NCBI GenBank assembly: GCA_963785725.1
Contig: CAWAWS010000015.1
Location: forward strand, 192,001 to 256,000
Origin: an uncultured delta proteobacterium
GTDB lineage: Bacteria; Myxococcota_A; Polyangia; Palsa-1104
Direction of reading: 5' to 3'
Length of the DNA: 64,000 nt
The notes below the pieces were generated by a model. The model made no database searches. It saw only the letters and a program-made list of their open reading frames with translations, and was not told where the DNA came from. Within the stretch, counting starts at the first letter, position 1, and each line of letters starts with the position of its first letter. Below, one piece after another: positions 14,056-36,908 of this stretch. The translations under genes and the position numbers were made by a program.

Positions 14056-14070
14056 GAGGCTGGCAGCCAC
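14056..14070. promoter_or_regulatory. Palindromic site GAGGCTGGCAGCCAC, candidate activator-binding enhancer
   Basis: 16-nt exact match (14055-14070) to 23234-23249; about 110 bp upstream of a sigma54-like promoter. Confidence 0.6.
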
Positions 14071-14144
14071 ACGGTTGACTGGGAGAAGACACCCCCGACG
14101 ACCCTTCGCGTTTACGTAACTCGGCGTACGACAAAGGTTTGCGA

Positions 14145-14161
14145 TCGGCGCGCGTTTTGCT
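14145..14161 (+). promoter_or_regulatory. Sigma54-type -24/-12 promoter for the pilin-Hint gene
   Basis: TCGGCGCGCGTTTTGCT with GG-N10-GC spacing, followed by RBS GGAGGG (14174-14179) and TTG at 14185. Confidence 0.6.
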
Positions 14162-14184
14162 CTTGGGCAAGCCGGAGGGTTTGC

Positions 14185-16056
14185 TTGACCAGATCAACAC
14201 GCATTCGGCGCTCTTCGCGGGGTGCCTCGGGGATCGAATACGTCATCGCGCTGGTGCTCGTCTGCATGACGGTGATCGTCGGCTATCGCGCGTTCGGCAA
14301 GCGCGTCCGCTGCCGCATGGGCCTGGCCACGTCGGCGATGGCGCTCGACGGCAGCAAAGGCGAGAGCTGCGACGACGACGACGGCGCGCTCGCGCAGAAT
14401 GGTCCCTCCGGCAACGGCGGCAACAGCAACGGCCCGGCCGGACCGTCGGTCAGCGTCGAGTGCGAGCCGTGCAAGGTCAAAGGGCCCAACGGCGAGCCAG
14501 GCTGCTTCGTCGCCGGCACCAGCGTCATGACCGAGGCTGGGCCGCGTCCGATCGAGACGATCGCCGTGGGCACGACGGTGTTGACGCGCGATCAGCTCGG
14601 CGGCGAGCTGGAGTGGCGACCGGTCTTGCGCACCTTCGTTCACGACGTGCATGCGCCTCTGGTGCGCCTCACGGTCGCGACCGCCGAAGGCGTCGAGGAC
14701 ACGCTGGTGGCGACCGCCAATCATCCGCTGCAGAGCGACGAGCGCGGCTGGGTCGCCGCGGGCGAGCTGGTGCCCGGCCGCGACCACCTCCTCGATGCCG
14801 ACGGCGAGCGGCTCGCGGTGCTCGACGGCGAGACGCTGTCGAGCAACGAGCGCGTCTACAACTTCGAGGTCGAAGAGGCGCACACCTACTATGTCGGCCG
14901 GCTGCGGGTCTGGGCGCACAACGATTGCACCAAGCTGCAGCCGCCGTCGGCGGACACGAACACCGGACCGACCGTCTTGCCGCCGACGCCGGGGCCGACG
15001 CCGTCTACCACGACGACGCCGCCGCCGTCGACGACGCCGACGACGACGCCGACGCCGTCTACCACGACGACGCCGCCCCCGCCGCCTTCGTCGTCGACCG
15101 GAACGACCGGCGAACGGAACGGGTCGAATCATCAGTATCCGCCGGCGCCGGCCACCACCGGCGGCGGGTCGGGCGGCAACGGTCCCGGCGGCAGTGGCTC
15201 GGCCGGAAGCGGCGGCTCGGGTGGCGGCAAGTCGAGCCCGAGCCAGACGGCTGAGAAGTACACGGGCCTCGGTCAGAACGGCATCGACGTGCTCAACGGC
15301 GGCTTCGACGCGGCGAACAAGGGCGGCAACGTGGTCGGCCAGTCCAGCTCGATCACCCAGGCCATCGGCGGCGGCCTCGGCCTCGCGAATCAGGGGCTCG
15401 GTCTCTACAACCGGCCCAAGCCCAATCCGTTGAACCCCGGCAATCCGCCGCCGCCCATCGACAAGTGGGGCTTGGCGGGCGACGGAATCGCCAACGGCGC
15501 CGACGTCGTCGGCGGCATCAGCGGCGCCGTGGGTGGCTTCACCGGCAACTCGCAGGCGTCGACCATCGGCAGCTGGGCCAGCAGCGTCGGCAACGGCGTG
15601 TCGTCGCTCAACGGATTCCGGCAGGCGTGGAACTCGTGGAACGACGGCGAGCGGCGCGAGTTCATCAAGTATCTGATCGGCGCGACCGCCGACGGGTTCG
15701 GCTCGGCGCAGAACGCCATGCAAGCGCTCGGTCTGGCCGGCACGACGCAGTCCAACCTGCAGATCACGTCCGGCGTCCTCGCGATCATCGCGGCCGGGCT
15801 CGAGCCCGACGGCGTGCTCGCCACCTGGTTCAACAACGGCATGAACGCGTGGCGCGGCAACCAGCCGCCGCCGCCGCCTCCGCCGACGCCGAACCCGGTC
15901 GGGCCGCCGCCGATTTCGCTGACGCCGCCGGACAGCCCGCCGCCGGCGCAGCTGGGACCGCCCGATCCCAACCATCTCCAGCCGCCGCCGGTGAACAACG
16001 ACCCGGGCAACACGCCGCGGCCGCCACCGACGATCATCATCACGCCGCCCAACTAG
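14185..16056 (+). CDS. Flp-type prepilin fused to a Hint (bacterial intein-like) domain, Pro/Thr linker, Gly-rich helical domain and Pro-rich tail (about 623 aa)
   Basis: MTRSTRIRRSSRG|ASGIEYVIALVLV (basic leader, G-1, E+5, Y+6); Hint from CFVAGT (14503) through ATANHP to VYNFEVEEAHTYYVG..WAHN (14922). Confidence 0.88.
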   Translation: MTRSTRIRRSSRGASGIEYVIALVLVCMTVIVGYRAFGKRVRCRMGLATSAMALDGSKGESCDDDDGALAQNGPSGNGGNSNGPAGPSVSVECEPCKVKGPNGEPGCFVAGTSVMTEAGPRPIETIAVGTTVLTRDQLGGELEWRPVLRTFVHDVHAPLVRLTVATAEGVEDTLVATANHPLQSDERGWVAAGELVPGRDHLLDADGERLAVLDGETLSSNERVYNFEVEEAHTYYVGRLRVWAHNDCTKLQPPSADTNTGPTVLPPTPGPTPSTTTTPPPSTTPTTTPTPSTTTTPPPPPSSSTGTTGERNGSNHQYPPAPATTGGGSGGNGPGGSGSAGSGGSGGGKSSPSQTAEKYTGLGQNGIDVLNGGFDAANKGGNVVGQSSSITQAIGGGLGLANQGLGLYNRPKPNPLNPGNPPPPIDKWGLAGDGIANGADVVGGISGAVGGFTGNSQASTIGSWASSVGNGVSSLNGFRQAWNSWNDGERREFIKYLIGATADGFGSAQNAMQALGLAGTTQSNLQITSGVLAIIAAGLEPDGVLATWFNNGMNAWRGNQPPPPPPPTPNPVGPPPISLTPPDSPPPAQLGPPDPNHLQPPPVNNDPGNTPRPPPTIIITPPN

Positions 16057-16129
16057 ATCTCATGCCGGCCGGAACGCGCGCAAGGCACGCGTTGACAGTC
16101 GCACGCCTTCGCGATCACACTTGGGTCAC

Positions 16130-17482
<1,353 letters not shown>

Positions 17483-17540
17483 ATCGGCTGACGCGTCCGC
17501 CGTCGCGCGCGCCCTGCGGCGCAAGTAAACGGGTGTTTAC

Positions 17541-18999
17541 TTAGGCCAGCGGCTCGTGGCCGAACAGGCGCAACAGCCAGTGCAGCCAGCGCGGCCAGCG
17601 GCTCGGTGGCGCGCGTCGCGACAACACCGTCACCTGCGGCTCGAGCGGCCGGCTGCTGCGTGGCGCGTCGATGCGCGTCGGCTCGGCCTCGTCGTGCATC
17701 CCGATGTCGTCGAGCTTGGGCGGCGCGCCGAAGCCGAGCGGCGGCCCCGGCTCGTGCAGCGGCGACGGCTCGCCCGTGACCGTCGGCTCGTACTCGGTGC
17801 CGAGCGGCGGCGCCTCTTGAATCATGCTCAGCTCGAAGCGCATCGCGTCGTTGTCCTTCGACGGATCGATCGGGAGCGCCGGCTGCGATGATCGAGTGAT
17901 CGGCGGTCTCTTCGTCCTGCAGCAGCTGCGGCTCTTCAGTGTCGCTGTTGTACGTGCCCGAGCGGTCGGCGTCGTGGCGCTTCTCGAGCTCGTCGAGCAC
18001 GAAGCCGGTGAACGCCTCGCCGCCCGAGTGCTGCGCCGCGCGCCAGGCGTCGACCGTGAGCGCGAACAGCTCGCGCATGTAGCGCGCCAGCCCGACCGGC
18101 GACACCGGCAGCTTCTGCTCGCGCGCGAACGACTCCAGCGCCAGCTGCAGCTCTTCGGCGGTCTGAAAGCGATCTTCGACGCGCAGGCTCAAGCCCTTCA
18201 TCAAGATCGCCTCTAACGCTGGCGGATAATCGGGCTCGATGCTGCTCGGCTTGGGCACGTCGGCGTTGGCGACGGCCTTCAAGAGGCCGAGCGGGCTCTT
18301 GGGATCGAAGAGGCGGCGGCCCAACGTCAATTCCCACAAGACGATCGAGACCGAGAAGACGTCGGAGCGGCGATCGATGGCGCCACCCAAGCACTGCTCG
18401 GGCGACATATAGGGGATCTTGCCTTTGATGGTGCGGTTGCGCGTCTCGATGAGGCGGCGCGCGGCCTTGGCGATGCCGAAGTCGACGACTTTGACGCTGC
18501 CGTCGTACGTGACCGAGATGTTGTGCGGCGAGATGTCGCGATGGACGATGTAAAGCGGCTGCCCGTCGAGCGCGACCCGTTCGTGCGCATAATGCAGGCC
18601 GGCGCACATGCCGAGCCCGATCGACAGCGCGTGCTCGAGCGGGATGCGCACGTTCTTGGCCTGCGCGTGCTTCATCAGGCGCGCGACGTCTTCGCCGTGG
18701 AGGTACTCCATGGCGATGTAGTAGCCGCCGTAATCCTCACCGAAGTCGTAGGTCTGCACGATGTTGGCGTGCTGCAGCGTCGCCGCCAGCCGCGCCTCGT
18801 CGAGGAACATGGCGATGTACTTTTGATACGTCGCCAGCTGCGGCCGCACGCGCTTGATGACCACGAGCCGCTCGATGCCGACGAGACCGGTGGCGCGCGC
18901 CAAGAACAGCTCGGCCATGCCGCCTTGGGCCAACGGCCGCAGAACTTCGTACTTGCCGATACGGGCCGGCACCGTCGACTGACCGGTGGTCACCGTCAC
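17541..18999 (-). CDS. Ser/Thr protein kinase without obvious TM helix, frameshifted near 17880; acidic Thr-containing tail
   Basis: QGGMAEL, VVIK, HRDISPHN, DFG, YMSPE; tail continues in ORF 17541..17843, and the uncorrected frame would overlap the convergent activator gene. Confidence 0.88.
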
Positions 19000-19151
19000 G
19001 TCGCTCGCGCCTGCAAACTACTTTGAGTACCAACCCTAAGCATTGCTGGACACAGAATGTACTACTCGGCTTCGGGCTGCGGCAAGGGGACGCGTCTGAA
19101 AGTGCTAGCGGGAGTAGGGGTTCGTACGGATAGCGAGAAGACGCGACTGGG

Positions 19152-19385
19152 TCAGTGCGACTGGCTGCAGACGAGGCCGATGCAGCCGTCGTCGGCAGGC
19201 TTGAGCTGCGTGTTGCTCGAGCCGGTGCATTCGGACGCGTGGTCGCCCGCCGCCATCTTGCAGCGCGCGATGCGGCCGAACTCGTAGACGACCTTCAAGC
19301 CGGCGATGGCGATGAACATGACGACGATGATCCACTCGACGGCGGCGGCGCCGCGCGTGCGGGCACGGAGCTGATGACGGGCCAT
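19152..19385 (-). CDS. Small Cys-containing Flp-like minor pilin (77 aa)
   Basis: GGAGG RBS; MARHQLRARTRG|AAAVEWIIVVMFIAIAGL; four Cys in the C-terminal half. Confidence 0.8.
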   Translation of the reverse strand: MARHQLRARTRGAAAVEWIIVVMFIAIAGLKVVYEFGRIARCKMAAGDHASECTGSSNTQLKPADDGCIGLVCSQSH

Positions 19386-19387
19386 GC

Positions 19388-20266
19388 TCAACCTCCCTTG
19401 GCGATGACGGCCAGGTCGACTTTCATGGGGTCGACTTGATCGATCGAGAGGATGACGGTGCGCGCGCCCTGGTCGAAGCGCATGGTGACGCTGGCGTTGG
19501 AGCTCTTGGCGAAGCGCGGATCCTCGACCCAGTCGTGCTGCTTCATGGCGAACGCCAGCTGCGTCGCGACGCCCGAGACCGAGCCCTGTCCTTCGTAGAC
19601 GCGCGTGCTCCACGGCTTGCCCTTCTCGTCGAGCGCCAACACACGCTGCAGACCGGGGAGGCGCGGCACGTTGGGGATGTCGCCGCCGTCGACGTCGACG
19701 CCGTGCGGCGGCATCAGCTTGTCGAGCGAGAAGCGCGTGTCGGTCCACAGCGTCAAAAAGCGCGTGCCGCCGCCCGGCTCTTTGTGCCACTGGACGAAGC
19801 GGACTTGGCCGATGTCGCCGATGCGATGGCTCTTCAAGAACTTGAGGTAGCGATCTTTCAAGCTCGCCAGTGACAAGTCTTTGCCGAAGTCGAAGGCCAC
19901 GAGGCCGCCTTCGTCGTCGGTGCCGAAGGCCAGCTCGGTCGGCGGCGCCTTCTTGCCCGTCTGCGCCGCGATCTTCCGCAGCGCGTCCTGCGAGCTCGCA
20001 TATTGATCGACGTAGAAGTCTTTGACGCGCGCGCCTTGGTGCGGCGTCGAGCCCACGGCCACGTGCAAGAGCTGACCGTTGATGGCGACGGTGCGCGGCT
20101 CTTCGGTGGTGCGCTTGTCGTCGAGATAGGGCGCCATGTTCTTGCCGAAGTTCAGAAAGCCGTCGAACACCGAGCCTTCGGCGGGGCGCGGCGTCAAGAC
20201 GAGCGCGGCGATGGGCGCGACCGCCGCGATGAACGTCGTCAAACGCAAGATCGGCTTCCACCTCAC
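19388..20266 (-). CDS. Exported hypothetical protein within the pilin operon
   Basis: N-terminal hydrophobic signal; coupled to both neighbours; no recognisable family motif. Confidence 0.75.
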   Translation of the reverse strand: MRWKPILRLTTFIAAVAPIAALVLTPRPAEGSVFDGFLNFGKNMAPYLDDKRTTEEPRTVAINGQLLHVAVGSTPHQGARVKDFYVDQYASSQDALRKIAAQTGKKAPPTELAFGTDDEGGLVAFDFGKDLSLASLKDRYLKFLKSHRIGDIGQVRFVQWHKEPGGGTRFLTLWTDTRFSLDKLMPPHGVDVDGGDIPNVPRLPGLQRVLALDEKGKPWSTRVYEGQGSVSGVATQLAFAMKQHDWVEDPRFAKSSNASVTMRFDQGARTVILSIDQVDPMKVDLAVIAKGG

Positions 20267-20772
20267 GGCTGCACCTCCAGCTCTTTGAACGCGAACGGCG
20301 TCATGACGTCGAGCAGCGAGCTGTCGGGCGTCGGCAGCTTGTCATTGCAGTGCAAGAACGTGCGGCCGGCGATCTCCTTCGACGTAAAGCCGTAGCCGCC
20401 TTGCTCTTTGGCGGCGGTGCGGCCGACGCGCGCGTCGATGCTCGACGTCGCCTCGAGGAACGAGCCGCGCGCCGCTTCCGGCAAGATGAGGTACGCGGCC
20501 ATCGTCTCGTCGCCGAGCGTGCCCAAGGAGGCGAGCGTCGCCGCCGAGATCGCGCTCGGCACCATCGTCGTGTCGCACTGACCCGACGTCGCGTGCGCCC
20601 AGGCTTCGGTGCGCGACTCGTGCAGGACCTGCTGCGCCATCAAATACTGAATGCGAAAGTGGTTGATGGCGGCCCACGTGAAGATGAGCAGCGGGCAGAT
20701 GATGGCCAGCTCGACCATGGCCGTGCCGCGTTGCCGGCGATTGCGAGACCGTCGCGCGCGTGTCGTCGTCAT
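20263..20772 (-). CDS. tadE: TadE/TadF-like pseudopilin (169 aa)
   Basis: MTTTRARRSRNRRQRG|TAMVELAIICPLLIF; TAATG overlap with the upstream gene. Confidence 0.82.
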   Translation of the reverse strand: MTTTRARRSRNRRQRGTAMVELAIICPLLIFTWAAINHFRIQYLMAQQVLHESRTEAWAHATSGQCDTTMVPSAISAATLASLGTLGDETMAAYLILPEAARGSFLEATSSIDARVGRTAAKEQGGYGFTSKEIAGRTFLHCNDKLPTPDSSLLDVMTPFAFKELEVQP

Positions 20773-21932
20773 TAGTGGATCCACACTTTGTCGAGGATGG
20801 CGTTCAACGGGCCGGCGGTGAGGAACTTGAGCGGACCGAAGTCTTTGGCCTGCGACAGGATGAGGCGCGCGCGCCAGTCCATGTGCCACAGGTCTTCTTC
20901 TTTGCTGCCGCCGTAGCCGTAGACGCTCGCCTCCGACGTCGCCAGCATCCACTTGGCCGTCGCTTCCGGCGCGTCGCCGTACTGCGAAGCGGCGGCGACG
21001 AGATAGGCGCGGCGATCGTCGGGCTTGGAGTCGTCGAGGAAGCTGACGGCCTTGATGCGCGCCGTCGTCTGCCAATCGGGCGTGAGGATCTGCGGGATGA
21101 CGCCGTATTCGCCGCCGCAGGTCTCGGCCGCGCCGATGGCCAACGCCGCCGGCGACAGGCCGGCGATGATGAGCTTGCCCTCCGGCGGAATCTCCTTCGG
21201 CAGCTGCAAGAGGCCGATGGGGCCGAACGCCAAGCCGTACTCCTCTTTCTGCGGCGACGGGCCGCACACTTGATTGGGCGCGCCGTCCATCGCCGGAATC
21301 ACGGGCTTAATCGGATCGAGCACGGTGACGAGGCCCGGCAAGCGCTTGGCGTAGGCGTCATTCATGCTGACCTCTTCGGCCTCGACGGCGACGAGGATGG
21401 CGCCGGTCTTCTCGAGCTCCTTGGCGGCGTTGGCGATGGTCTTGATGCGACCGGCGAGCTCGCTGGCGGCGGCCTCGTAGCGCGCGGCGATCTCCTCGGC
21501 GATGCCCGAGTCGACGATGGCGCAGTCGGGCGCGTCGCCGATGCAGTAGGTGCCGAGCGACGCGGCCTCGAGCGTGCCGATGGCGGCGATGAAGCCGATG
21601 ATGGCGCCGCCGAGCCCGTTGAGCGTGTAGACCATGGCCATGCCGCAGGCGACGGCGAGGTTGCACCACGCGATCGAGTTCAGCGTCTTGGCCTCGGCGG
21701 CGGCGCCGGCGAAGGCGGCCGCGTCGACCGCGGCCTGGATGGTCTCCTTCTGCATGTAGCGGCGGCCGACGGCGATGACGAAGAACACCAGCGCCGAGAC
21801 GAAGAGCATGCAGACGGCGTAGAGGATAGCCACGTGGCCGCGCTCGTCGCGGTGCAAGCGCACGAACAGGCGCTTCGTGACGCGGCTGCGCAGCCGACCG
21901 AGGAATCCCGACGTCGAAGGTTTGGCGCGCAT
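20772..21932 (-). CDS. tadG: TadG-like pilus tip protein
   Basis: RDERG|HVAILYAVCMLF..IAVGR....IQAAVDAAAFAGA Tad-domain motif; no E+5, as is typical of TadG. Confidence 0.82.
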   Translation of the reverse strand: MRAKPSTSGFLGRLRSRVTKRLFVRLHRDERGHVAILYAVCMLFVSALVFFVIAVGRRYMQKETIQAAVDAAAFAGAAAEAKTLNSIAWCNLAVACGMAMVYTLNGLGGAIIGFIAAIGTLEAASLGTYCIGDAPDCAIVDSGIAEEIAARYEAAASELAGRIKTIANAAKELEKTGAILVAVEAEEVSMNDAYAKRLPGLVTVLDPIKPVIPAMDGAPNQVCGPSPQKEEYGLAFGPIGLLQLPKEIPPEGKLIIAGLSPAALAIGAAETCGGEYGVIPQILTPDWQTTARIKAVSFLDDSKPDDRRAYLVAAASQYGDAPEATAKWMLATSEASVYGYGGSKEEDLWHMDWRARLILSQAKDFGPLKFLTAGPLNAILDKVWIH

Positions 21933-21933
21933 G

Positions 21934-22533
21934 TCAGATGATCTTCCGCGGGTTGAGCTCGGGGTTCGGTCGGCCCTGTTTCGTCAGCGTGTGCTGCGCG
22001 CGCAAAATCAGATAGCGACCGTCGCCGGGCGTGATGTTCGCTTTGTGCAAATCTTCCTGCGCCGCCGACGGCAGGTCGCTGATCGGCCCGCAGAAGTAGC
22101 GGCTCGCGATGGGCACCGTGCAGTGATAGGCGTAGACGACGCGCACGGTGATCTGCGCGTCGTACTGGTCGGTGCCGAAGCGGCTCTCGGAGATGATGAC
22201 GCCGGTGTTCTTCGACGCCTCGGCCCAGCCGCCGCCCTTGCCGAACGAGTCGGCGATGGAGTTGCCTTGCGGCGCGATCGGCAAGATGGCGTAGACGGCG
22301 GCGTCGCGGATCGACTCGTTGTGCGCTTGATGGCCGTTCTCCTCTTCGTCGGGCACGACGACGATGGCGGCGCGCGCCGCGGCTTGCGCCGCGTAGTGCA
22401 CCGTCAGCTTCGCCACCGATAGCAGCGCGAGCTGAATGACGCCCGTGAAGATCATCATGAACGGGATGATGGCGATGACGAATTCGACCGCCACCATACC
22501 GCGCGGTCGTGCAGCACTACGCAGGCGTCGCAT
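21934..22533 (-). CDS. tadE: TadE-like pseudopilin
   Basis: RPRG|MVAVEFVIAIIPFMMIFTGVIQLAL....VHYAAQAAARAA. Confidence 0.88.
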   Translation of the reverse strand: MRRLRSAARPRGMVAVEFVIAIIPFMMIFTGVIQLALLSVAKLTVHYAAQAAARAAIVVVPDEEENGHQAHNESIRDAAVYAILPIAPQGNSIADSFGKGGGWAEASKNTGVIISESRFGTDQYDAQITVRVVYAYHCTVPIASRYFCGPISDLPSAAQEDLHKANITPGDGRYLILRAQHTLTKQGRPNPELNPRKII

Positions 22534-22607: not shown

Positions 22608-22826
22608 TTACTCGAGGACCTGAACCGACGTGAAGTGCTGGTCGGCCGACGAGACGGCGCCCTTGAACTTCGAGCCGAACGCCTTGAACACGGCGATGCC
22701 GGTGATGGCGATGAAGATGAGGACGATGATGTACTCGACCGAGCTCGCACCCTTCTGCTTGTTGAGCTTGCGGGCGATCTTCTTCATCGAGCGGTTCTCC
22801 ATCTTGGCGAGCGCGAGGGTCTTCAT
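22608..22826 (-). CDS. flp: Flp major pilin (72 aa)
   Basis: AGGAG RBS; ..KLNKQKG|ASSVEYIIVLIFIAITGIAVFKAFG (Flp E+5/Y+6 motif). Confidence 0.9.
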   Translation of the reverse strand: MKTLALAKMENRSMKKIARKLNKQKGASSVEYIIVLIFIAITGIAVFKAFGSKFKGAVSSADQHFTSVQVLE

Positions 22827-22852: not shown

Positions 22853-23032
22853 TCACGGTAAGGGCAGCTCGGTCATGAACTCGATCCGATCGTGATACCC
22901 GAGCAAGTACCGACCGAGCGGGGCCAGCGCGATGCAGGCTCCGAACGTGACCAGCGTGAGGATGATCAGCCACTCCAACATGGCCGTCCCCCTCTGCCGC
23001 TCTCGCGTTCGAATCCGACCGAGCCGTTTCAT
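22853..23032 (-). CDS. Small Flp-like minor pilin (59 aa)
   Basis: MKRLGRIRTRERQRG|TAMLEWLIILTLVTFGACIAL..; ends ELPLP. Confidence 0.78.
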   Translation of the reverse strand: MKRLGRIRTRERQRGTAMLEWLIILTLVTFGACIALAPLGRYLLGYHDRIEFMTELPLP

Positions 23033-23045
23033 GTTCCCTGGCCTT

Positions 23046-23061
23046 ATCAAGTCCGATGCCA
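23046..23061 (-). promoter_or_regulatory. Sigma54-like promoter of the pilin operon
   Basis: TGGCATCGGACTTGAT: good -24 element, TTGA instead of TTGC at -12. Confidence 0.5.
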
Positions 23062-23157
23062 AGTCGAATCTCCGCGGCTGCCGTGAAAGCGGGGTGAAAA
23101 TGGGCCCGATTTCGCCCGAATTTCGAGAGACTCGCGATGGGGTTTTTCCCCCTCGGG

Positions 23158-23266
23158 CCCGAGGCTGGCAGCCTCGGGGCCGTTTGCGGATGCGCTTGCG
23201 CGGCAAGGGCCCGGGGGATTTCCCCCTCGACCATGAGGCTGGCAGCCACCCGAGACTGCCAGCCCC
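23158..23266. promoter_or_regulatory. Three related palindromes in the divergent tad intergenic region
   Basis: CCCGAGGCTG-G-CAGCCTCGGG (23158-23178), GAGGCTGGCAGCCAC (23235-23249), GAGACTGCCAGCCCC (23252-23266). Confidence 0.65.
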
Positions 23267-23334
23267 GTGCCGGAACTCCGCGCGGGACGTGGACCTCGCG
23301 GTCGAAGCCGCATCACGGACCGCTACATAGATAG

Positions 23335-23350
23335 TGGCCCCTCTCTTGTA
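23335..23350 (+). promoter_or_regulatory. Weak sigma54-like promoter of the cpaB operon
   Basis: TGGCCCCTCTCTTGTA: correct spacing, GT instead of GC at -12. Confidence 0.35.
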
Positions 23351-23400
23351 TTGGCACTCGAGCCAACGGAGCGCGGCAACGGCCGCGAAGTGTGGGGACC

Positions 23401-24176
23401 ATGAAGAAGCGTCTATTGATTGCCGTCGCCTTTGCGATCGTCTCGATGGTGTGCGGCTACATGTATATCGACGGCCTCGGGGCCGCGACCACCGGCGGCC
23501 GCAAGGTGCCGGTGCTGGTGGCGGCGGCGGAGATTCCGGCCGGCTCGCGCATCACGAAGGAGATGCTCGGGGTGCGCGAGATCCCCGAAGCCTACGTCCA
23601 TCCCGAGTCGATCACGGCCGGGCCGGCGGAAGAGGCGCGGCTCATCGGCCGGCCGCTCTTCGCCAAGCTCGCGCAAGGGCAGCCACTTTTATGGAGCGGC
23701 TTCGATGTGCAGAAGGCTGGGCCGCAGAAGCTGTCGGCCGGCATTCCGCGCCACAAGCGCGCGCTCACGCTGCCCATCGATCTGCAGGGCGGCTTCTCGG
23801 GCATGTTGCGCTCGGGCGACCACATCGACGTGCTCGGCACCTTCACCCAGGCGGCCAACCAGTCGCAGACGGTGACGCTGCTGCAGAACCTGGCGGTCTT
23901 GGCCGTGGGCGACATGCGCGGTGATGCCGAGGGGCCGACGCGCGGCTTCAACAGCGTCACCCTGGCCGTCGACCTCGACGAAGCCGAGCTGCTCGTGTTC
24001 GCGCAGCAGCGTGGCGCGCTCAGCTACGCCTTGCGCTCGGAAGGCGACTTCGAGACGGTGGCCGACATCACCGAGAAGAGCTTCGGCGACGTGCTCGACG
24101 TGCATCGCCGCCAGGCCGAGTACAAGCGCAACGCGGCTCCGTCGGCGGCGCCTGCCGCTCCGCGAGCGGGTGGCCA

Positions 24177-24180
<4 letters not shown>
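23401..24180 (+). CDS. cpaB: Flp pilus assembly protein CpaB/RcpC
   Basis: N-terminal TM; SAF domain VLVAAAEIPAGSRIT; KRALTLPID..GFSGMLRSGDHIDVL..LLQNLAVLAVG..ALRS. Confidence 0.93.
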
Positions 24181-25946
<1,766 letters not shown>

Positions 25947-26912: not shown

Positions 26913-27857
26913 GTGAACGTCATGGGTGAGCTCCTGCAAAGCTTGACGACGAATCCGTCGCTGTATTGGCTCTTCGGCGCCATCGTGTGTATGGGCGTGG
27001 CCGCCTTCGTCATCGTCATGGCGGCGGTGCCGAAGCCGCGCGCGCTGACGCACCTCATGGGCTATCGCGCGACGGCACGCCGCGAGGGCCTCGAGCAGAA
27101 CCAGTTCCTGAAGATGGCGTGGCCGCTCGTCGAATTGGGCGCGCAATATTCGTCGGGAATCGCCATGCCGGAGTGGCGGCAGAGCATGGCCAAGCTGCTG
27201 CGCGACTCGGGCGCGCCGCTCGGCCTCGACGTCGACGAGCTGGTCGGCGTCATCTTCACCAGCACAGTGGCGCTGCTCGGCCTCGCGTTCGTGGTGGCGC
27301 AGCTGCGCGGCTTCGGCTTCGGCATCTACATCTTGGCGGCGTTCATCGGCGTCTGCTTGCCGTTCATGTGGCTGAGCGAGCAGGGCAAAGAGCGCTTCAA
27401 GTCGATCAACCGCGGCCTGCCGCAGGCGCTCGACCTCGTCGTCATGGCCATGGGCGCCGGCCTCGACTTCACCGGCTCGTTGCGCAACGTCGTCGAGCGC
27501 TGGACCGACAAGAAGGACCCGATGTTCCTCGAGCTCAGCCGCTTCTTGCACGAGCTCAGCCTCGGCAAGACGCGCCGCGAGGCGCTCGAAGACTTGGCCG
27601 TGCGCGCGCCCACCGAGCTCGTGCGCACCTTCGTCGCCAACGTCGTGCAGGCCGAGCAGCGCGGCACGCCGCTCGTCGAGATCTTGGCGATTCAGGCCGA
27701 CGTCGCGCGCACGCGCCGCTTTCAGACGGCCGAGAAAATAGCCGGTCGCGCCGGCGTCATGGTGCTTCTGCCGCTCATGTTAATCTTCATGGCAACCATC
27801 TTGGTGCTCTTCGGTGGTCTCATCGTCAAGGGCATCCGCGGGGAGCTCACGTCGTGA
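26913..27857 (+). CDS. tadC: TadC inner-membrane platform protein
   Basis: LPQALDLVVMAMGAGLDF, LGKTRREAL, QAEQRGTP, AEKIAGRA..LLPL. Confidence 0.92.
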   Translation: MNVMGELLQSLTTNPSLYWLFGAIVCMGVAAFVIVMAAVPKPRALTHLMGYRATARREGLEQNQFLKMAWPLVELGAQYSSGIAMPEWRQSMAKLLRDSGAPLGLDVDELVGVIFTSTVALLGLAFVVAQLRGFGFGIYILAAFIGVCLPFMWLSEQGKERFKSINRGLPQALDLVVMAMGAGLDFTGSLRNVVERWTDKKDPMFLELSRFLHELSLGKTRREALEDLAVRAPTELVRTFVANVVQAEQRGTPLVEILAIQADVARTRRFQTAEKIAGRAGVMVLLPLMLIFMATILVLFGGLIVKGIRGELTS

Positions 27858-28783
27858 CGCCTGAACGCGCAGTCCCGGCGCCGGCCGTCGTGCCTTCGGT
27901 GCCTTTCGAGGTCCACGTCGGCACCGTCGACGGACCGATCCGCTCGTACCAGTTCGACGCCGAGCGCATCCTCATCGGCCGCGCCAGCGACGTCGATCTG
28001 CGGGTCGCGCACTCGGCGATGGCGCGCCATCAGTTCATCATCGAGCGCATCCTGCTCGACGGCGGACCGGCGCGCTTCCGCATCGTCCTCGTCGGCGGCA
28101 CCAACCCGACCTATCTGAACGGGCAGCCGGCCGTCGAAGGCAGCTTGCAGCCGGGCGAGGAGATCGCCGTCGGACCGCTGCGCATCTCGGTGCACTCGCC
28201 GAAGAAGCGCAAAGCGGCGGCCAAGGCCTCGGGCGGCGTCCGCGAGAAGGTCGTGCTCATCGCCGGCATCCTCGGCATCGGCCTCGTCTGCTGGTGGATG
28301 TTCGGCGACTCGGATCCGCCGCCGCAGGTGAACCCGGCCGAAGTCGACGCGCCCCTGTTCCATTCGCTGCCGCCGTTGTCGTGCCCGACGTCGGACGCCT
28401 GCGCGGCGCGCGCTCGCGAGCAGTACGCCAAAGGCCGGCAGTACGAAGACCTCGTGCAAGGCGACATCGGCAACCTGTATCGCGCGTCGATCGCGTTCGC
28501 CTACGCGGCGCAGCTGCGGCAGGCGTCGAACCAGCCGATGCCGGAGATCGCCGACGCCACCGGGCGCGTCGATCGCGACGCGCGCAAGGCGCAAGAGATC
28601 CTCGAGGACGCGCGCTTCCAGCTGCGGCGCGCGCTCGCGGCCGGTGACGGCGACCGCACCGCGCATTCGCTGGCGGTCATTCAGCAGCTCGTGCCCGAGC
28701 CGGGCCATCCGATTCGGCTCGGCCTCGACAAGATTCGCCGCGACCTGGCCAAGGACAAAGACAAGGACAAGGACGATAAATGA
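27854..28783 (+). CDS. FHA-like domain + TM + periplasmic helical protein
   Basis: GTGA overlap with tadC; ILIGRASDVDLRV..MARHQ..GTNPTYLNG; TM VVLIAGILGIGLVCWWMF. Confidence 0.8.
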   Translation: MTPERAVPAPAVVPSVPFEVHVGTVDGPIRSYQFDAERILIGRASDVDLRVAHSAMARHQFIIERILLDGGPARFRIVLVGGTNPTYLNGQPAVEGSLQPGEEIAVGPLRISVHSPKKRKAAAKASGGVREKVVLIAGILGIGLVCWWMFGDSDPPPQVNPAEVDAPLFHSLPPLSCPTSDACAARAREQYAKGRQYEDLVQGDIGNLYRASIAFAYAAQLRQASNQPMPEIADATGRVDRDARKAQEILEDARFQLRRALAAGDGDRTAHSLAVIQQLVPEPGHPIRLGLDKIRRDLAKDKDKDKDDK

Positions 28784-29892
28784 GCCACGGTCCGCAGCGC
28801 ATCCCGGACGCGATCTTCCAGCAGACGCTGGTCGGGTTCCTAAAGCCGATCGAGAAGTTTCTGGCCGACGATCGCGTCTCGGAGGTCATGATCAACGGGG
28901 CGCGCGAGATCTACATCGAGCGCGGCGGCAAGCTGGAGCTCTCCGGCGCCGAGTTCCCGTCCGACCACGCGCTCGAGACGGCGGTGCGCAACATCGCGCA
29001 GTTCGTCGGCAAAACCGTCGACGCCGAGCGGCCGATCTTGGACGCGCGCCTGCCCGACGGCAGCCGCGTCTGCGCCGTCTTGCCGCCGGCCGCGCGGCGC
29101 GGCATCACCGTCTCCATCCGCCGCTTCCCGAAGTCGCGCCTGACGGTGCAGGATCTCGTCAACTACGGCGCCGTCTCGGAAGGCGCGCTGGCGTTCTTGA
29201 AGCTGTGCGTCGAGATGAAGCGCAACATCCTCGTCGCCGGCGGTACCGGCTCGGGCAAGACGTCGCTGTTGAACGCGCTGTCCTCGTTCGTGTCGGCGGA
29301 CGAGCGCGTCGTCGTCATCGAGGACTCGTCCGAGGTGCAGCTGCAGCAGCCGCACGCCGTCTACTTGGAAGCGCGCCCGCCCGATCACAAAGGCCAGCAC
29401 GCGGTAACCATCCGCGACCTCTTGCGGGCGACGCTGCGACTGCGCCCCGACCGCATCATCGTCGGCGAGTGTCGCGGTGGTGAGGCGCTCGACCTCGTGC
29501 AGTCGATGACCTCCGGCCACGGCGGCTCGATGTCGACCGTCCACGCGACCCATCCGCACGACACGGTTCAGCGTTTGGAGACGTTGTGCCTGATGTCGGA
29601 GGTGGAACTGCCCTTGCATGCTTTGCGCGGACAAGTGGCCTCCGCCGTCAACATGATCGTGCAGACGAACCGTCTCAACGACGGCAGCCGCAAGATCACC
29701 GACATCGTCGAGTGCCGCGGCCTCGACGCCAAAGGCTTCTACGATCTCAATCCGCTGTTCGAGTTCCGCCAGACCGGGGTCGATCCGAAGACGAGCAAGA
29801 TTCGCGGCGCGTTGGTCGCGACCCGCAACCCGGTCAGCTTCGCCGAAGAGCTGGAGGGCCACGGCGCGACGCTGCCCGAGGAGATGATGTAA
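28780..29892 (+). CDS. cpaF: Second CpaF/TadA family ATPase (no FHA)
   Basis: SEVMING, DARLPDGSRV, GGTGSGKT, IEDSSE, LRLRPDRIIVGECRGGEA, SGHGGSMSTVHA. Confidence 0.93.
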   Translation: MSHGPQRIPDAIFQQTLVGFLKPIEKFLADDRVSEVMINGAREIYIERGGKLELSGAEFPSDHALETAVRNIAQFVGKTVDAERPILDARLPDGSRVCAVLPPAARRGITVSIRRFPKSRLTVQDLVNYGAVSEGALAFLKLCVEMKRNILVAGGTGSGKTSLLNALSSFVSADERVVVIEDSSEVQLQQPHAVYLEARPPDHKGQHAVTIRDLLRATLRLRPDRIIVGECRGGEALDLVQSMTSGHGGSMSTVHATHPHDTVQRLETLCLMSEVELPLHALRGQVASAVNMIVQTNRLNDGSRKITDIVECRGLDAKGFYDLNPLFEFRQTGVDPKTSKIRGALVATRNPVSFAEELEGHGATLPEEMM

Positions 29893-31907
29893 TGCAGGAC
29901 GAAGAAGAAAAAACGTCGATGTTTCGGCAGAATAAGCCGATCGAGCCGGAGCGCACCGTGGTCGCGGCGCCGCGTCAGGTGGCGCGCCTGAAGGCCACGC
30001 TCGAAGACGGCATGCAGACGTTTTTGCCGCTCACGTCCGCGCCCGTGACGATGACGATCGGCCGCGATCCGTCGTGCGGCTGGTACCTGCAGGACTTGAG
30101 CGTCTCGCGCATTCACGCCTCCATCCGCTGGAGCGGCGTCGCCTTGTCGATCGAGGATCACGGCTCGAGCGGCGGCACGTTCGTCGCCAACCGCCAGGTG
30201 GGGACCACCCCTTGCCTGGTGAGGCCGGGCGACTCAGTCCGGGTCGGCGACGCCATCTTCGTCCTCGAGCTCACGAGCGGCATCGCGTCCAAGGATGTCG
30301 AGCAGACGCGCATGGTGCCGAACCCGTCGCCGATGTCGTACGCGGTGACGCCGGCGCCGTCGCGTCATCAGAAGCCGGTGGAGATTCCGCTCGGCACCTC
30401 GGCCGACGACGAGCGCACGGCGTTCTCGTCCGTCGCCGCGCCGCACGCGCGAGAGGGCCGTCAGGCGGCGCACGACGAAGAGGAGCGTACGGCGTTCTCG
30501 AAGGTGGCGACGCCGGCGCGCGGGCAGCGGGCGCACGCCGAGCTGCCGTCGATCGCCGCGCTCGCCGACGAGGAGAAGACGGCGTTTCAGGTCGAGCTGC
30601 CGAACGTCGTGGTGGCGTCGGACGCGACGGAGTCCGAGGTCGAGCTGCCGATCGCCGAATCGCGGCCGCAGCGCGTCGCGCCGGCCAAGCCGGTGGCGCA
30701 CGCCAAACCGGCCCCGAAGCCTGCGCCGCCGGTGCAGCAGACGCGGCCGACCACGCCGCCGAAGGCGATCCCGGCGGTCAAGCCGGCGCCGGTCAGGCCG
30801 GTCGCGCAGCCGAAGCCGGTCGCGGCCGAGCAGCAGACGACCGAGGCCGAAATTCCGCTGCCGGAAGCGGCGCCGTGGAGCAAGCCGTCGAGCGAGCAGA
30901 CGAAGACGGCGGCCGAGCTGCCCTTGCCGGGCGCACGCGCGACGCAGCCGCGCACCGAAGCCGAAGTGCGGCTGCCGCCCGAGCAGGCGCGCACGGCGAC
31001 CAAGACGCTGCCCGCCCATCAGCTGCCGACCGAGGCCGAGATTCCGCTGCCGGAAGCCAAAGCGCGCGCGCCCTTGCCGAAGACGGAGGCCCATATTCCG
31101 CTTCCCGCCGTCGCCGCCGCTTCGCGGACGGCGTCGACGGAATCGACGGTGGCGCCGGCTTCGCCGATCGCGATTCCGGTGCGCGCGCCCGATCACGAGC
31201 CGCTCGTCTACGTGCCCGAGAGCGACGTGCTGGCTCCGACGGAGGTGACGCGCAGCTGGGCCGTCGAGACGGCGCTGGCGAAGCCGAAGGAGGGCCTGTT
31301 CGGCGCGCGTCGCGGCACCGTGAAGTCGGGCATGCCGGTCAAGAAGTCGGCCGAAGGCAAGAGCGCGATCGGCAAGCTGGCGCAGCTGGCCAAGGGCGCC
31401 GCCAAAGGCGCCAAGACGACCGCCAAGACAGCGAAGCCGTCCCAGGCGGAGTCGACGGCGAAGACATGGACGTTGTCGAGCCAGCGCAAGCGCATCTTGC
31501 TGCTCGCGGGACCGGCCCTCTTGGCGATCGTCACCTCGGCGTCGGCGTGGATGCAGGCGCCGGCGGACGCGGCGAGCGAGGCCAAGCCGGCCGGCGCCAA
31601 GCACGCCAAAGCGCATCCGGCGAACGGCGCGGCGGTCGCGAACGGCGGCGCGGCCAACGGCGCGGCTGGCAATGGAGCCGGCGGCGACGGCAACGCGCAG
31701 CCCGCGGATCCGACGGCGGCGGTGGCGCCGGCCGCGGTCGCGCCCGTCGATTCGGCCGCGCGCGACGAGCTGCTCGCCGGCGCCATTCGCGCCTACAGCG
31801 ACGGCAATCGCGCCGAAGCGTTGAACATCTTCCGGCGCATGGGACCGAACGATCCGACCGGACGCGCGATGGTGCACATCATCACGCTGCAAGCCGAGGG
31901 ACAATAA
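29892..31907 (+). CDS. FHA protein with long repetitive disordered linker and C-terminal TM/periplasmic helix (about 671 aa)
   Basis: TAATG coupling; IGRDPSC..SVSRIHA..DHGSSGGTFV; repeats (D/E)ExTAF and TEAEIPLP; TM ILLLAGPALLAIV. Confidence 0.82.
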   Translation: MQDEEEKTSMFRQNKPIEPERTVVAAPRQVARLKATLEDGMQTFLPLTSAPVTMTIGRDPSCGWYLQDLSVSRIHASIRWSGVALSIEDHGSSGGTFVANRQVGTTPCLVRPGDSVRVGDAIFVLELTSGIASKDVEQTRMVPNPSPMSYAVTPAPSRHQKPVEIPLGTSADDERTAFSSVAAPHAREGRQAAHDEEERTAFSKVATPARGQRAHAELPSIAALADEEKTAFQVELPNVVVASDATESEVELPIAESRPQRVAPAKPVAHAKPAPKPAPPVQQTRPTTPPKAIPAVKPAPVRPVAQPKPVAAEQQTTEAEIPLPEAAPWSKPSSEQTKTAAELPLPGARATQPRTEAEVRLPPEQARTATKTLPAHQLPTEAEIPLPEAKARAPLPKTEAHIPLPAVAAASRTASTESTVAPASPIAIPVRAPDHEPLVYVPESDVLAPTEVTRSWAVETALAKPKEGLFGARRGTVKSGMPVKKSAEGKSAIGKLAQLAKGAAKGAKTTAKTAKPSQAESTAKTWTLSSQRKRILLLAGPALLAIVTSASAWMQAPADAASEAKPAGAKHAKAHPANGAAVANGGAANGAAGNGAGGDGNAQPADPTAAVAPAAVAPVDSAARDELLAGAIRAYSDGNRAEALNIFRRMGPNDPTGRAMVHIITLQAEGQ

Positions 31908-31909
31908 TC

Positions 31910-32626
31910 ATGATGCGTACGACGTTGCAGCTGGCGCTGTTGGCGGCGGTTTCGGCTTGGGTGGGCTGCACGCCGCCGCCGCCGCCGCGGCCGTTCGACA
32001 TCGAGGTCAAGGTCCACACCGACGAGAACGAGCCCGTCGCCGGCGCCGCGGTCAGCGCCGGCGATCGCGCGCTCGGCACCACCGACGCCAATGGCCGGCT
32101 GCTCTTGCATTTGCGCATGAACGAGGGCGCGCACGTGGCGCTCAACGTCGAGCCGCCGCAAGGCTACAAGACGATCGACGAAGCGCGGCCGCTCGTGCTG
32201 CACCGCATTTCGCGGATGGTCGACGGCGCGGCCAAGGAAGTGCCGATGGAGCACGTCGTGCGCTTCGCGCAGCTGCAGCGGCGTTATGCCGTGCTCGTCG
32301 ACGTCGGGCAGCCGAACATGGTCGTCGAGGCGTTCGGCGCGAAGCAGGCGGTGACGAATTCCAAGGGTGTGGCGTCGTTCGTTTACAACGGCACGCCCGG
32401 CGACGAGCTGGCCGTGCGCGTGAGCAGCGACGGTCATCCCGAGCTGGCGCCGAAAGTGGTGGCGAACAGCTTCGTGCTCGCGCCGCGCTCGGAGGCGTAT
32501 CTGGTGCAAGGCCGCTTCGAGCCGGCGGCGACGACGCGTTCGCGCGCGCCGCTGTCGTCGGTCGTGGTCGTGCACAAGTACGTGCATCCGAAAGCGCCGA
32601 AGAGCACCGGTCCGCATCGCCTGTAG
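31910..32626 (+). CDS. Predicted lipoprotein with beta-sandwich (carboxypeptidase-regulatory-like) domains
   Basis: MMRTTLQLALLAAVSAWVGC lipobox; EPVAGAAV..LGTTDANG. Confidence 0.75.
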   Translation: MMRTTLQLALLAAVSAWVGCTPPPPPRPFDIEVKVHTDENEPVAGAAVSAGDRALGTTDANGRLLLHLRMNEGAHVALNVEPPQGYKTIDEARPLVLHRISRMVDGAAKEVPMEHVVRFAQLQRRYAVLVDVGQPNMVVEAFGAKQAVTNSKGVASFVYNGTPGDELAVRVSSDGHPELAPKVVANSFVLAPRSEAYLVQGRFEPAATTRSRAPLSSVVVVHKYVHPKAPKSTGPHRL

Positions 32627-32655
32627 TCGCCGTCCGCGTCGTCACGCCGTCCGCA

Positions 32656-32741
32656 CGTAATTTCCGCCCGCGCCAAGCGCCGTCTCATCCGTAATTTCCG
32701 CCCGCGCCAAGCGCCGTCTCATCCGCAATTTTCGCCCGCGC
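32656..32741. repeat. 34-bp tandem direct repeat, about 2.5 copies
   Basis: CGTAATTTCCGCCCGCGCCAAGCGCCGTCTCATC at 32656 and 32690; degenerate third copy at 32724; no spacers. Confidence 0.9.
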
Positions 32742-36200: not shown

Positions 36201-36753
36201 TGACGCCGCCGCCGCCGATCTGTGGGCCGTTGAAGGTGAGGCCGCCGCCGTTGACGTCGGGGCCGTTCAAGTTGATCGTCGGTCCGTTGAAGTTGGGCGT
36301 GACGTTGACCGTGCCCAGCGAGATGGACGGGCCGCTCAAGTTGATGCTGGGCCCGTTGACGCTCGGTCCCGACAAATCGATCATCGGCAGCTCGAGGCCG
36401 GGCACGTTGATCGTCTTATCGGGCAAGTTGAGGTTGGGCAGGCTCTTGTCGAACTGCGGCGAGAAGCCGGGCGAGAAGTTCCAGGTCTTGCCGTCGTAGC
36501 CGGGCACCGTGTAATCGAGGCCGGGGACGTTGATCTGCGGCCCGAACGAGATCGCGAGGCCGCCGCCGGTGTTGCCCGCGGCCTTGACCTTGTCGTACAG
36601 CGTGTTGGCCGTCGCGCCCTTCGACTTCGCGGTCGTGCCCAGCTTCTGGTAGCCCATCATCGCCGTGACGGCGACGAACACCGCGCCAATGGACCACTCG
36701 ACGGTGGCTCCGCCTCGGGTTCGTCGTTTTCTCGTGCGTGATGGTTGGCCCAT
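33205..36753 (-). CDS. Giant repetitive Flp-like prepilin fusion (1182 aa), putative surface fibre/adhesin
   Basis: MGQPSRTRKRRTRG|GATVEWSIGAVFVAVTAMMGYQKLG; then GPx(I/V)N, GP(T/V)VT, GSAGGT/GNAGG and GPVVVGTDPxTGxPxY repeat blocks; basic/His-rich C-terminus. Confidence 0.85.
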   Translation of the reverse strand: MGQPSRTRKRRTRGGATVEWSIGAVFVAVTAMMGYQKLGTTAKSKGATANTLYDKVKAAGNTGGGLAISFGPQINVPGLDYTVPGYDGKTWNFSPGFSPQFDKSLPNLNLPDKTINVPGLELPMIDLSGPSVNGPSINLSGPSISLGTVNVTPNFNGPTINLNGPDVNGGGLTFNGPQIGGGGVNLSAGTISGGSINFSGGAYSGPSFNGSVDVGGGGVNVGGGNVNGPSVNGNGGGVTGPTVNGSGPVVTGPTVNGDGPVVTGPTATGSGSVTGPTATGSGPTVNGPSVNGNGPVVTGPTVNGSGPVVTGPVVTGTGPIVTGPTATGTGPTVTGPVVTGTGPVVTGPTVTGTGPVVTGPTVTGSGPTVTGPIVTGTGPVVTGPTATGTGPTVTGPVVTGTGPTVTGPTVTGTGPVVTGPIVTGSDPTVTGPVVTGTGPVVTGPTATGSGPTVTGPTVTSTGPTVTPPSVTGSGSNDPGGSGGGGGASGAGGGGGASGAGGGDPASGGAGGNAGGAGNAGGSGNAGGTGDPASGSAGGTGSAGGTGNAGGAGNAGGSGDPSNAGGTGSAGGTGSAGGSGNAGGTGDPSSAGGTGSAGGSGSAGGAGNAGGSGNAGGSGDPASGSAGGTGSAGGSGSAGGSGNAGGSGDPASGSAGGTASGSAGGTGSAGGSGSAGGDGTGSEPVTPLNPLGPLGPGPVVGGTDPLNPLGPGPVIVGTDPATGAPVVTTGGFGPSPGVIGTDPTTGAPVYGDPIATQPGSPGPVVVGTDPTTGAPVYASPVGTLPSGSSSGPVVIGTDPTTGNPIYGNPITTVPGSTSPGPVVIGLNPTTGNPVYANPIATLPGGPGPVVVGTDPVTGQPIYSNPVATLPNGATAPVVVGFDPTTGAPIYASPVAPVAGGPGPVVVGVDPATGAPIYGPGTLGPGPVVAGSYPPGGFGPGPVVVGTDPSGRPIYGNPIVGTQLQPVASSSPGARSYGPTIGTLPAGQVTPRDPNGVVATRPGALGPATALQPRDGVIVASRPTTEVAGARSTSAGGVYTGGYDSAGHYNGTGLYDRNGNYVGTREQAEREELKKKGKKIRARQLQTAAAGAPGLAAPTAELTPQQRAIRQASAAQLRRALNNPSLTPAARQQLEKMATQMDSESGTATATHSGPHKFPHPAQARLEHHSSTAHHIHHPLRQAE

Positions 36754-36765
36754 GTAAGCGCTGAC

Positions 36766-36781
36766 AGCACGGCCCGTGCCA
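36766..36781 (-). promoter_or_regulatory. Sigma54 -24/-12 promoter of the giant pilin gene
   Basis: TGGCACGGGCCGTGCT, a near-consensus match to TGGCACG-N4-TTGCW. Confidence 0.75.
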
Positions 36782-36879
36782 GGCGTTCAGACGCTCCAGA
36801 CCCACACCCGCCGCGGGCTGCAACGCGTTGGAGAAGCTCAGTGGATGCGCGGCAGGGGGGAGAAGTCCGCCCCAACGAT

Positions 36880-36908
36880 GAGGCTGTGCGCCTCAGGCGG
36901 CGAGCCAC
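36880..36908. promoter_or_regulatory. Tandem GAGGC-N5-GCC(T/A)C-type palindromes
   Basis: GAGGCTGTGCGCCTC (36880-36894) and CAGGCGGCGAGCCAC (36894-36908). Confidence 0.5.

Follow-up and report, generated by a model that had tools for sequence, protein, structure and literature searches.

Can a Tad pilus carry toxins as parts of its own subunits? The question is raised by a locus in a 64,000-nucleotide stretch of DNA from an uncultured delta proteobacterium (Myxococcota_A, Polyangia; GenBank assembly GCA_963785725.1, contig CAWAWS010000015.1, positions 192,001 to 256,000), referred to here as the window. A first-pass annotation, made from the letters of the window, had read this locus as a Kil-like Tad pilus system with eight prepilins, two ATPases and its own FHA/kinase signalling, bracketed by two cargo-carrying pilins. 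Here we find that one of these pilins, encoded by the gene starting at 14185, joins a Flp prepilin to a Hint domain and a C-terminal tail, and that it is one of six such proteins in the genome. We consider it fairly probable that these six Flp–Hint–tail proteins are polymorphic toxins that are assembled as minor pilins and then freed by Hint.

Results

Six Flp–Hint–tail proteins with different tails

The genome under study (G000; C-numbers denote its contigs and other G-numbers the genomes of relatives) is an assembly of 8.9 Mb that is 88% complete, and the database relatives of its proteins carry the label Polyangia. Genes in the stretch were called from frame-specific GC content and translation. 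The 14185 protein contains a PT-HINT domain by Pfam (E 1e-17), the key feature that the first-pass annotation had left unnamed, and the linker between its pilin helix and Hint holds four or five cysteines. Five paralogues are found on C15, C20, C4, C22 and C7. All six proteins share a common head and Hint (39–67% identity) and end in six wholly different tails. In fact, a PT-HINT profile run on the genome recovers only these six Hint domains, all of them Flp-led. Frame breaks interrupt two of the six fusion genes in this assembly, and independent soil contigs span the promoter–pilin–Hint junction of the window copy (record 13886-14606) as well as its Hint–tail part.

The C22 tail scores 24.0 bits with a family of papain-fold toxins, just short of the 24.1-bit cut-off. 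The C4 tail carries a His...Tyr-Asn-Leu...Asn-Cys pattern that is common to six database tails and that we take to be permuted-papain-like. A reading of the C20 and C7 tails as ADP-ribosyltransferases was made by eye only and stays at the level of motifs; profiles from Scabin-like and other ADP-ribosyltransferase tails missed them. For the window tail, an atlas search gave a best match of 0.85 to an unnamed cluster and 0.78 to colicin and glycine-zipper clusters, which lies within the range of shuffled proteins and serves as a lead only. A single-sequence structure model of this tail (mean predicted local distance difference test, pLDDT, 37) was not used.

The family in other genomes

A profile of head plus Hint was compared with 1.84 billion representatives, and the best 150 clusters at 50% identity were examined. 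A pilin head precedes Hint in 70 of these 150 by profile score, and about ten more have a leader by pattern. With six proteins added to the best 150, 76 of 156 Hint proteins passed the family filter. Their tails fall into 55 clusters, and the Hint residues are kept throughout (Cys1 in 76/76, His-Asn in 75/76). A Pfam scan of 75 tails (69 of the 76, plus six picked by eye) gave toxin or enzyme matches above the cut-off for 19 and below it for 10. The families of these 19 are exoenzyme, Scabin-like and HYD1 ADP-ribosyltransferases, barnase-like RNase, HNH or other nucleases (WHH, GH-E and non-specific), M91 peptidase, Gln deamidases and glycosyltransferases.

The leaders are of the Flp type, with Phe at +1 in none of the 68 parsed members (G000 also encodes type IVa pilins and pilins of a type II secretion system, T2SS), and Gly(-1), Glu5 and Tyr6 are conserved across dozens of clusters. 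Named members come from Polyangia metagenome-assembled genomes, Pendulispora rubella (WP_394832720.1) and P. albinea (WP_394827593.1, WP_394826115.1). The earlier proposal that pilin N-termini act as export tags for payloads is, as architecture, strongly supported by the six paralogues, the 70 pilin-led clusters and the toxin tails, together with the immunity genes and the promoter motif described below, and it extends well beyond what the first-pass annotation had noticed. In P0012, P0014 and P0051, a Flp leader is followed by two or three Hint domains in a row.

In the complete genome G398, which encodes P0077, seven related Hint genes are found, four of them Flp-led. A barstar-like gene follows three of these four, those of RNase type, and two of the barstar-like matches lie above the cut-off. 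In G044, a pilin–Hint–Ntox16 gene stands right behind the second ATPase gene of a Tad locus and is followed by a DUF6714 gene. In G270 (C1:403493-407255), CdiI and TadG-like genes come after a TadE–Hint–Ntox21 gene. Immunity-like neighbours thus accompany five pilin-led genes across these three genomes, and none was found beside the two genes of G292 or the single gene of G272. Linkage to tad genes elsewhere, on which the first-pass annotation had staked its reading, gives a mixed picture: pilin–Hint–toxin genes are placed within a Tad locus in G044 and next to tip genes in G270, whereas the giant pilin of the window is unlinked in other genomes.

Genes resembling tadC are present in all five fusion-carrying genomes tested, a weak observation since Tad is common in the class. 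In a scan of genome contigs, RHS-type Hint toxins prevailed and pilin heads stood at 3 of 74 loci; the class-wide search scored only nine candidates per genome, and its blanks are weak. Two side observations concern tip pilins: the toxin carrier in G270 is the tip pilin TadE rather than Flp, and in G398 (C1:5417090-5420770) a signal-led Hint toxin gene and a CPCC gene are directly followed by TadE and TadG-like genes.

Cysteines on the tail side of Hint

Cysteine positions were compared in 67 members, nine near-duplicate, truncated or multi-Hint rows having been dropped. A cysteine within six residues after Hint is the only one of the two kinds in 47 members, a cysteine among the last five residues the only one in 12; both occur in 3 and neither in 5, against a cysteine background of 2% of five-residue windows. 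The post-Hint and C-terminal positions are mutually exclusive (Fisher p 4e-7, uncorrected for the kinship of the sequences). This exclusion points to a need for a single cysteine on the tail side, as would be expected if a disulfide joined tail and head once Hint has cut. Hint domains of this kind can cleave or splice even where position +1 lacks a nucleophile. The title of a 2004 study by Dassa says the same.

A shared promoter layout

The divergent region of the Tad locus holds three copies of a 15-bp palindrome. The motif pattern was written from these three Tad sites. An exact palindrome occurs at six sites in 8.9 Mb, namely the three Tad copies, position 14056, one site before the C20 fusion and one before a membrane-protein gene on C39. 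With at most two mismatches it precedes five of the six fusions and the giant pilin, and with three mismatches the sixth fusion. A sigma54-type site lies 28–41 nt 5' of all six fusion starts, of the giant pilin and of the first flp. Both motifs are found in 9 of 2776 regions upstream of other genes when two mismatches are allowed and in 31 of 2776 when three are, background counts that may include the fusion and pilin genes themselves. Since the motif was first spotted by eye in these regions and thresholds were set later, the enrichment is somewhat overstated, and still large. The obvious candidate for a regulator acting at the palindrome is the FHA-sigma54 activator 16130.

Two paralogous multi-pass membrane proteins of about 420 residues (C39:528567 and C27:72214, both on the minus strand) are also preceded by the palindrome and a sigma54-like site, 55 nt apart. 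They are possible further members of this regulon and, by eye, perhaps glycosyltransferase-like.

Components of the Tad machine

All eight prepilins of the first-pass annotation hold up: each of the eight open reading frames combines a hydrophobic helix with a basic leader (net +4 to +8) and a Gly cleavage site. Glu is found at +5 in seven of them, the exception being the TadG-like 21932 with Leu. Pfam likewise bears out the four FHA proteins (16130, 24177, 27854 and 29892) and the Ser/Thr kinase, and recognises TadE (22533), Tad (21932), RcpC/SAF CpaB, two T2SSE ATPases and two T2SSF proteins; CpaB also lies above the cut-off for NCBIfam TIGR03177. As annotated, there are two ATPases, both of the CpaF family with intact Walker A, Walker B and His boxes. 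The frame of the kinase is broken near 17887 by an extra base that is missing from the contigs of three of four soil runs, and the break is therefore probably an assembly error. The signalling genes, which had been described as the system's own, are local only in part.

One copy each of cpaB, tadB and tadC is present in G000. Neither a secretin nor a prepilin peptidase was found within the Tad locus of the window; on contig C4 (C4:103098-105615), a Tad secretin gene lies together with genes for a TPR lipoprotein and an A24 peptidase. In a same-genus genome, the two genes on either side of this trio enclose the complete tad locus, and a 73%-identical secretin is placed between cpaB and cpaF there. 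With the trio at the relatives' tad site, gene order indicates that the locus was split in the G000 lineage and the rest moved and partly inverted. The cpaB–cpaF–tadB–tadC operon is divergent here, as the earlier reading had it, but co-directional with the pilins in relatives. G000 encodes the Tad (type IVc) set of CpaF/TadA ATPase, TadB, TadC, CpaB/RcpC, Flp, TadE/G, secretin and peptidase. In addition, C16:337955-341397 holds a third, long-branched FHA-CpaF-like ATPase that adjoins a double-FHA protein and stands without tadB or tadC.

Kinship to Kil

A concatenated CpaF+TadB+TadC tree (23 rows, 705 columns; two rows with poor TadB/TadC segments) places the window in a Polyangia clade (100/100), and this clade groups with an Archangium Kil-type set, apart from canonical Tad systems (97.7/97). 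The outcome agrees with the Kil-like assignment for which this phylogeny had been proposed as a check. Canonical rows were alpha-, beta- and gammaproteobacterial, Abditibacterium and Streptomyces; Hyphomicrobiales and Litorimonas were left out, and the tree has no Myxococcus xanthus, Bdellovibrio or Bradymonas rows. The Kil reference is an Archangium locus recognised by its gene order (peptidase–secretin–FHA ATPase–FHA protein), which agrees with Kil cluster 1 as given in the accessible part of PMC8460266. In a single-gene quick tree with long-branch rows present, the Kil grouping is weaker (92), and the second ATPase stands in a clade apart (100). A lone relative of the second ATPase is encoded by the Archangium genome.

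The pilin block is present in all nine fetched same-genus or same-family loci, with the ATPase block adjoining in seven. Loci with two ATPases recur in Polyangiaceae, Sandaracinus and Kofleriaceae assemblies, G398 and G022. By tree and layout, then, the core is a Kil-related Tad system ordinary for Polyangia. The earlier picture of an elaborated system has to be given up, as two ATPases and three FHA genes are the conserved Polyangia layout. Bracketing by two cargo pilins does not recur in relatives, being seen in none of nine same-family loci.

The tree supports the Kil-like reading. Likeness to the Kil system of M. xanthus holds for the Tad-type machine, the FHA-fused CpaF ATPase, the several FHA partners, a short secretin encoded away from tadB/tadC, a putative tip trio (TadE/TadG/TadE here, TadE/F/G in Kil) and extra short Flp pilins. 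It does not extend to the ATPases, of which the G000 operon has two intact ones and Kil one in the accessible part of PMC8460266, nor to the tip trios, of which motif and Pfam find one in G000 against four in Kil. According to the accessible part of PMC12075869, Kil effectors are not yet known and Tip4 either bears a toxin or binds one; neither Hint nor intein occurs as a word in that text, whereas the variable cargo of G000 sits on Flp–Hint fusions. Kil works with a needleless type III secretion system as partner, and two genes of the type III/flagellar export gate (FHIPEP; C29:50385-52328 and C7:204920-206809, on contigs without a secretin) are candidates for such a system in G000. Canonical Tad/Cpa adhesion pili share CpaB, CpaF, TadB, TadC, Flp, TadE/G, secretin and A24 peptidase; unlike these, the G000 machine lies on a separate branch, is FHA-rich and has a second ATPase.

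The giant pilin and other features of the window

The giant pilin has a Flp leader and a weaker helix, followed by Gly/Thr/Pro/Val tandem repeats. No homologue was found (query residues 10-215; proteins of 650-2069 residues), it is present in none of 41 relatives, and an atlas search gave no match. Independent contigs cover it piecewise, at the head and in parts of the repeats. Its promoter layout is that of the fusions and the pilin operon, which makes it a likely surface or adhesive subunit expressed along with them.

The coordinates of all features are collected in Table 1. The short pilin 19152-19385 shows the cysteine pattern of the Hint-fusion heads, ends the pilin operon and is absent from relatives' loci; it may serve as an adapter or be where the fusion head came from. 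A 34-bp repeat occurs three times at 32644-32741, in the gap that separates the lipoprotein gene from the giant pilin. Upstream of the locus (6621-14042), genes for two further kinases and a TPR protein are joined by one that looks by eye like an ECF-type sigma gene and by one for a DUF2341/laminin G protein, and 11513-14042 looks like a single kinase–TPR gene divided by a frame break. At 38061-40646, a Family B DNA polymerase-like gene adjoins a short glutamine synthetase.

Table 1. Features of the Tad locus and its surroundings in window coordinates.
Feature	Position	Strand	Remarks
Palindromic upstream motif, putative enhancer	14056..14070	.	Exact copy of one of the three Tad divergent-region sites
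Sigma54-type -24/-12 promoter-like site	14146..14161	+	1 mismatch to consensus; 39 nt 5' of start
Flp prepilin–Cys linker–Hint–tail protein, 623 residues	14185..16056	+	Leader and helix 14185-14330; Hint 14503-14922; then Pro/Thr/Gly linker; Gly-rich tail about 15217-15864, then Pro-rich end
FHA-sigma54 activator (bacterial enhancer-binding protein, bEBP)	16130..17482	+	Pfam; candidate regulator of the motif
Ser/Thr kinase	17541..18999	-	Frame broken near 17887
Short Cys-containing Flp pilin	19152..19385	-	Hint-fusion-type head without cargo
Conserved protein of Polyangia Tad loci	19388..20266	-	Orthologues 37-44% identical; no Pfam match
TadE-like minor pilin	20263..20772	-	Tip trio
TadG-like large minor pilin	20772..21932	-	Tip trio; PF13400
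TadE minor pilin	21934..22533	-	Tip trio; PF07811
Flp pilin	22608..22826	-	Likely major subunit
Second Flp pilin	22853..23032	-	Possible adapter like KilK/KilO of the accessible part of PMC12075869
Divergent promoter region	23033..23400	.	Three palindromes: 23161-23175, 23235-23249, 23252-23266
Sigma54-like site in divergent region	23046..23061	-	
Sigma54-like site in divergent region	23335..23350	+	
CpaB/RcpC	23401..24180	+	
FHA-CpaF ATPase	24177..25946	+	KilF-like architecture
TadB	26035..26892	+	Pfam
TadC	26922..27857	+	Pfam
FHA membrane protein	27854..28783	+	
Second CpaF-family ATPase	28780..29892	+	Separate clade conserved in Polyangia
FHA, Pro-rich membrane protein	29892..31907	+	
Conserved lipoprotein with Ig-like domains	31907..32626	+	Weak Pfam matches
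Giant Flp-led protein, 1182 residues	33205..36753	-	Gly/Thr/Pro/Val tandem repeats, without Hint
Sigma54-like site upstream of giant pilin	36766..36781	-	
Palindrome upstream of giant pilin	36880..36894	-	2 mismatches

Discussion

From the architecture, the paralogy, the shared motif and the tails of the family, we infer a route of export, assembly, cleavage and toxicity. A single sigma54 activator, perhaps the FHA-bEBP 16130 under kinase control, would turn on the fusions, the giant pilin and the pilin operon together. The hydrophobic helix would place Hint and tail in the periplasm, and the peptidase would cut after Gly. A tail held there would be kept from cytoplasmic targets, which could explain the missing immunity genes in G000. 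Its Glu5/Tyr6 helix would let the fusion join the fibre or tip, built in by the Tad motor. Hint, with its catalytic residues intact, would cleave or splice, the conserved tail-side cysteine would tether the tail by a disulfide until it reaches a reducing cytoplasm, and on contact a prey or competitor cell would receive the tail. For the window copy, the Gly-rich tail is predicted to act on membranes, the weakest step of the scheme.

Several observations weigh against this route. A subunit of about 600 residues would have to pass the secretin. Among the six tails of G000, a Pfam toxin match is seen only in C22, just under the cut-off; for the C20, C7 and C4 tails, likeness to toxins is a matter of motif only, and sequence searches of the PDB found nothing; the window tail has neither a homologue (the search found only itself) nor a Pfam family, and a toxin or enzyme match is absent from 46 of the 75 scanned tails of the family. 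No immunity-like gene lies next to any of the six fusion genes of G000, and for this reason we class the window gene as one that works in the manner of a polymorphic toxin; taken together, the family appears to qualify as a polymorphic toxin system. A post-Hint cysteine is also present in 69 of 78 non-pilin Hint toxins, and the cysteine device may therefore be general to Hint toxins. The promoter motif was found neither at relatives' Tad loci nor at the C4 secretin gene, most fusion genes lie far from tad genes, and the spread is patchy, with a Flp head with Hint in 0 of 14 same-family genomes. Three of the seven G398 Hint genes open with a signal-like segment in place of the Flp leader, which indicates that the head of Hint fusions is exchangeable. 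The sister position to Kil, moreover, may mirror the species tree only.

Some of these points would suit a pilin head that serves as membrane anchor and export signal only, with Hint freeing the tail into the periplasm, from where it would leave outside the fibre, by the type II system, in vesicles or, as soluble cargo, via the Tad secretin. The signal-like N-termini of the three G398 genes fit this route, as do a T2SS and four secretins in G000 and the intact Hint residues for C-terminal cleavage. We nevertheless judge it unlikely: Gly(-1), Glu5 and Tyr6 would be needless in a plain anchor and are kept across dozens of clusters, the promoter motif is common to fusions and tad operons, and the pattern of cysteines points to a tail that remains bound to the head. 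That the Tad pilus is an adhesion organelle, its Flp fusions showing adhesive or recognition domains and any killing being left to other systems, seems quite improbable. A Hint-less repeat protein such as the giant pilin, a window tail without a toxin homologue and the absence of immunity genes from G000 would agree with it, but the five sister genes have other tails, one of them papain-toxin-like, the family has known toxin domains and immunity genes, a self-cleaving domain is superfluous for adhesion, and the machine groups with the Kil-type set.

A further explanation overlaps with toxin delivery on pilins in everything save the target. Copies without immunity genes would act against fungi or protists, as prey or as grazers, and copies with them would serve competition between related bacteria, not feeding. 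Papain-like, deamidase-like and Scabin-like families are often seen in eukaryote-directed effectors; such tails are borne by the immunity-free genes, and immunity-like genes come after RNase and Ntox tails. We regard this division of targets as rather doubtful, as gene context covers only about 17 genes and periplasmic topology alone could account for the missing immunity. Our preferred reading stays with toxins that would enter the pilus as minor pilins, aimed at prey or competitors.

How does such a family relate to known systems? Polymorphic toxin systems with PT-HINT (accessible parts of PMC3482391, 10.1101/2021.10.19.465003 and, for Umb toxins, 10.1101/2023.12.09.570830) share with it a conserved N-terminal trafficking part, release by Hint, an exchangeable C-terminal toxin and often a downstream immunity gene. 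Unlike these, the trafficking part here is a Flp or TadE prepilin, there is no repeat stalk, and G000 has no immunity genes. The words pilin, pilus and Flp are absent from the accessible text of Zhang 2012 (PMC3482391; the first 300,000 of 357,715 characters), and pilin terms from the accessible parts of PMC13483458 and of the Nachmias trafficking list (10.1101/2021.10.19.465003). One sentence in the accessible part of PMC12605009 and its preprint names Flp pilins among the N-terminal partners of a CD38-like (ARC) toxin; Flp is called an anchoring element there, and a figure list includes a P. albinea protein. The Flp–Hint protein P0108, with its weak ADP-ribosyl cyclase match, resembles this Flp–ARC fusion, but the accessible part of PMC12605009 describes neither a family nor a Hint domain, and is silent on a link to Tad, on regulation and on mechanism.

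Minor pilins that move cargo through a secretin are described in the accessible introduction of PMC12075869, for Vibrio cholerae TcpB–TcpF and for T2SS pseudopilus tips. In these systems a separate protein docks on the tip, whereas in the present family the cargo is fused to the pilin via a self-cleaving domain. We found no description of the Flp/TadE–Hint–toxin family in the literature, subscription journals and supplements being mostly outside the search. In sum, we see the machine as a member of the Kil-related Tad group, and the family as a polymorphic toxin type with an undescribed delivery route.

The broader proposal, which we hold to be evenly poised, is that Polyangia and other Myxococcota deliver toxins as subunits of their Tad pili. 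A Flp or TadE prepilin, Hint, a disulfide tether and one of dozens of toxin domains would make up each protein, and scattered genes in the sigma54 regulon of tad would supply an arsenal to be turned on prey or competitors. The family offers many uncharacterised tail domains, and the cis-motif could locate co-regulated genes. An effector fused to a pilin makes the question of Kil-type killing directly testable, and cultured Pendulispora carriers exist. If true, the proposal would add type IVc pili as a new secretion route for polymorphic toxins and would provide the first concrete effectors of a Kil-type machine.

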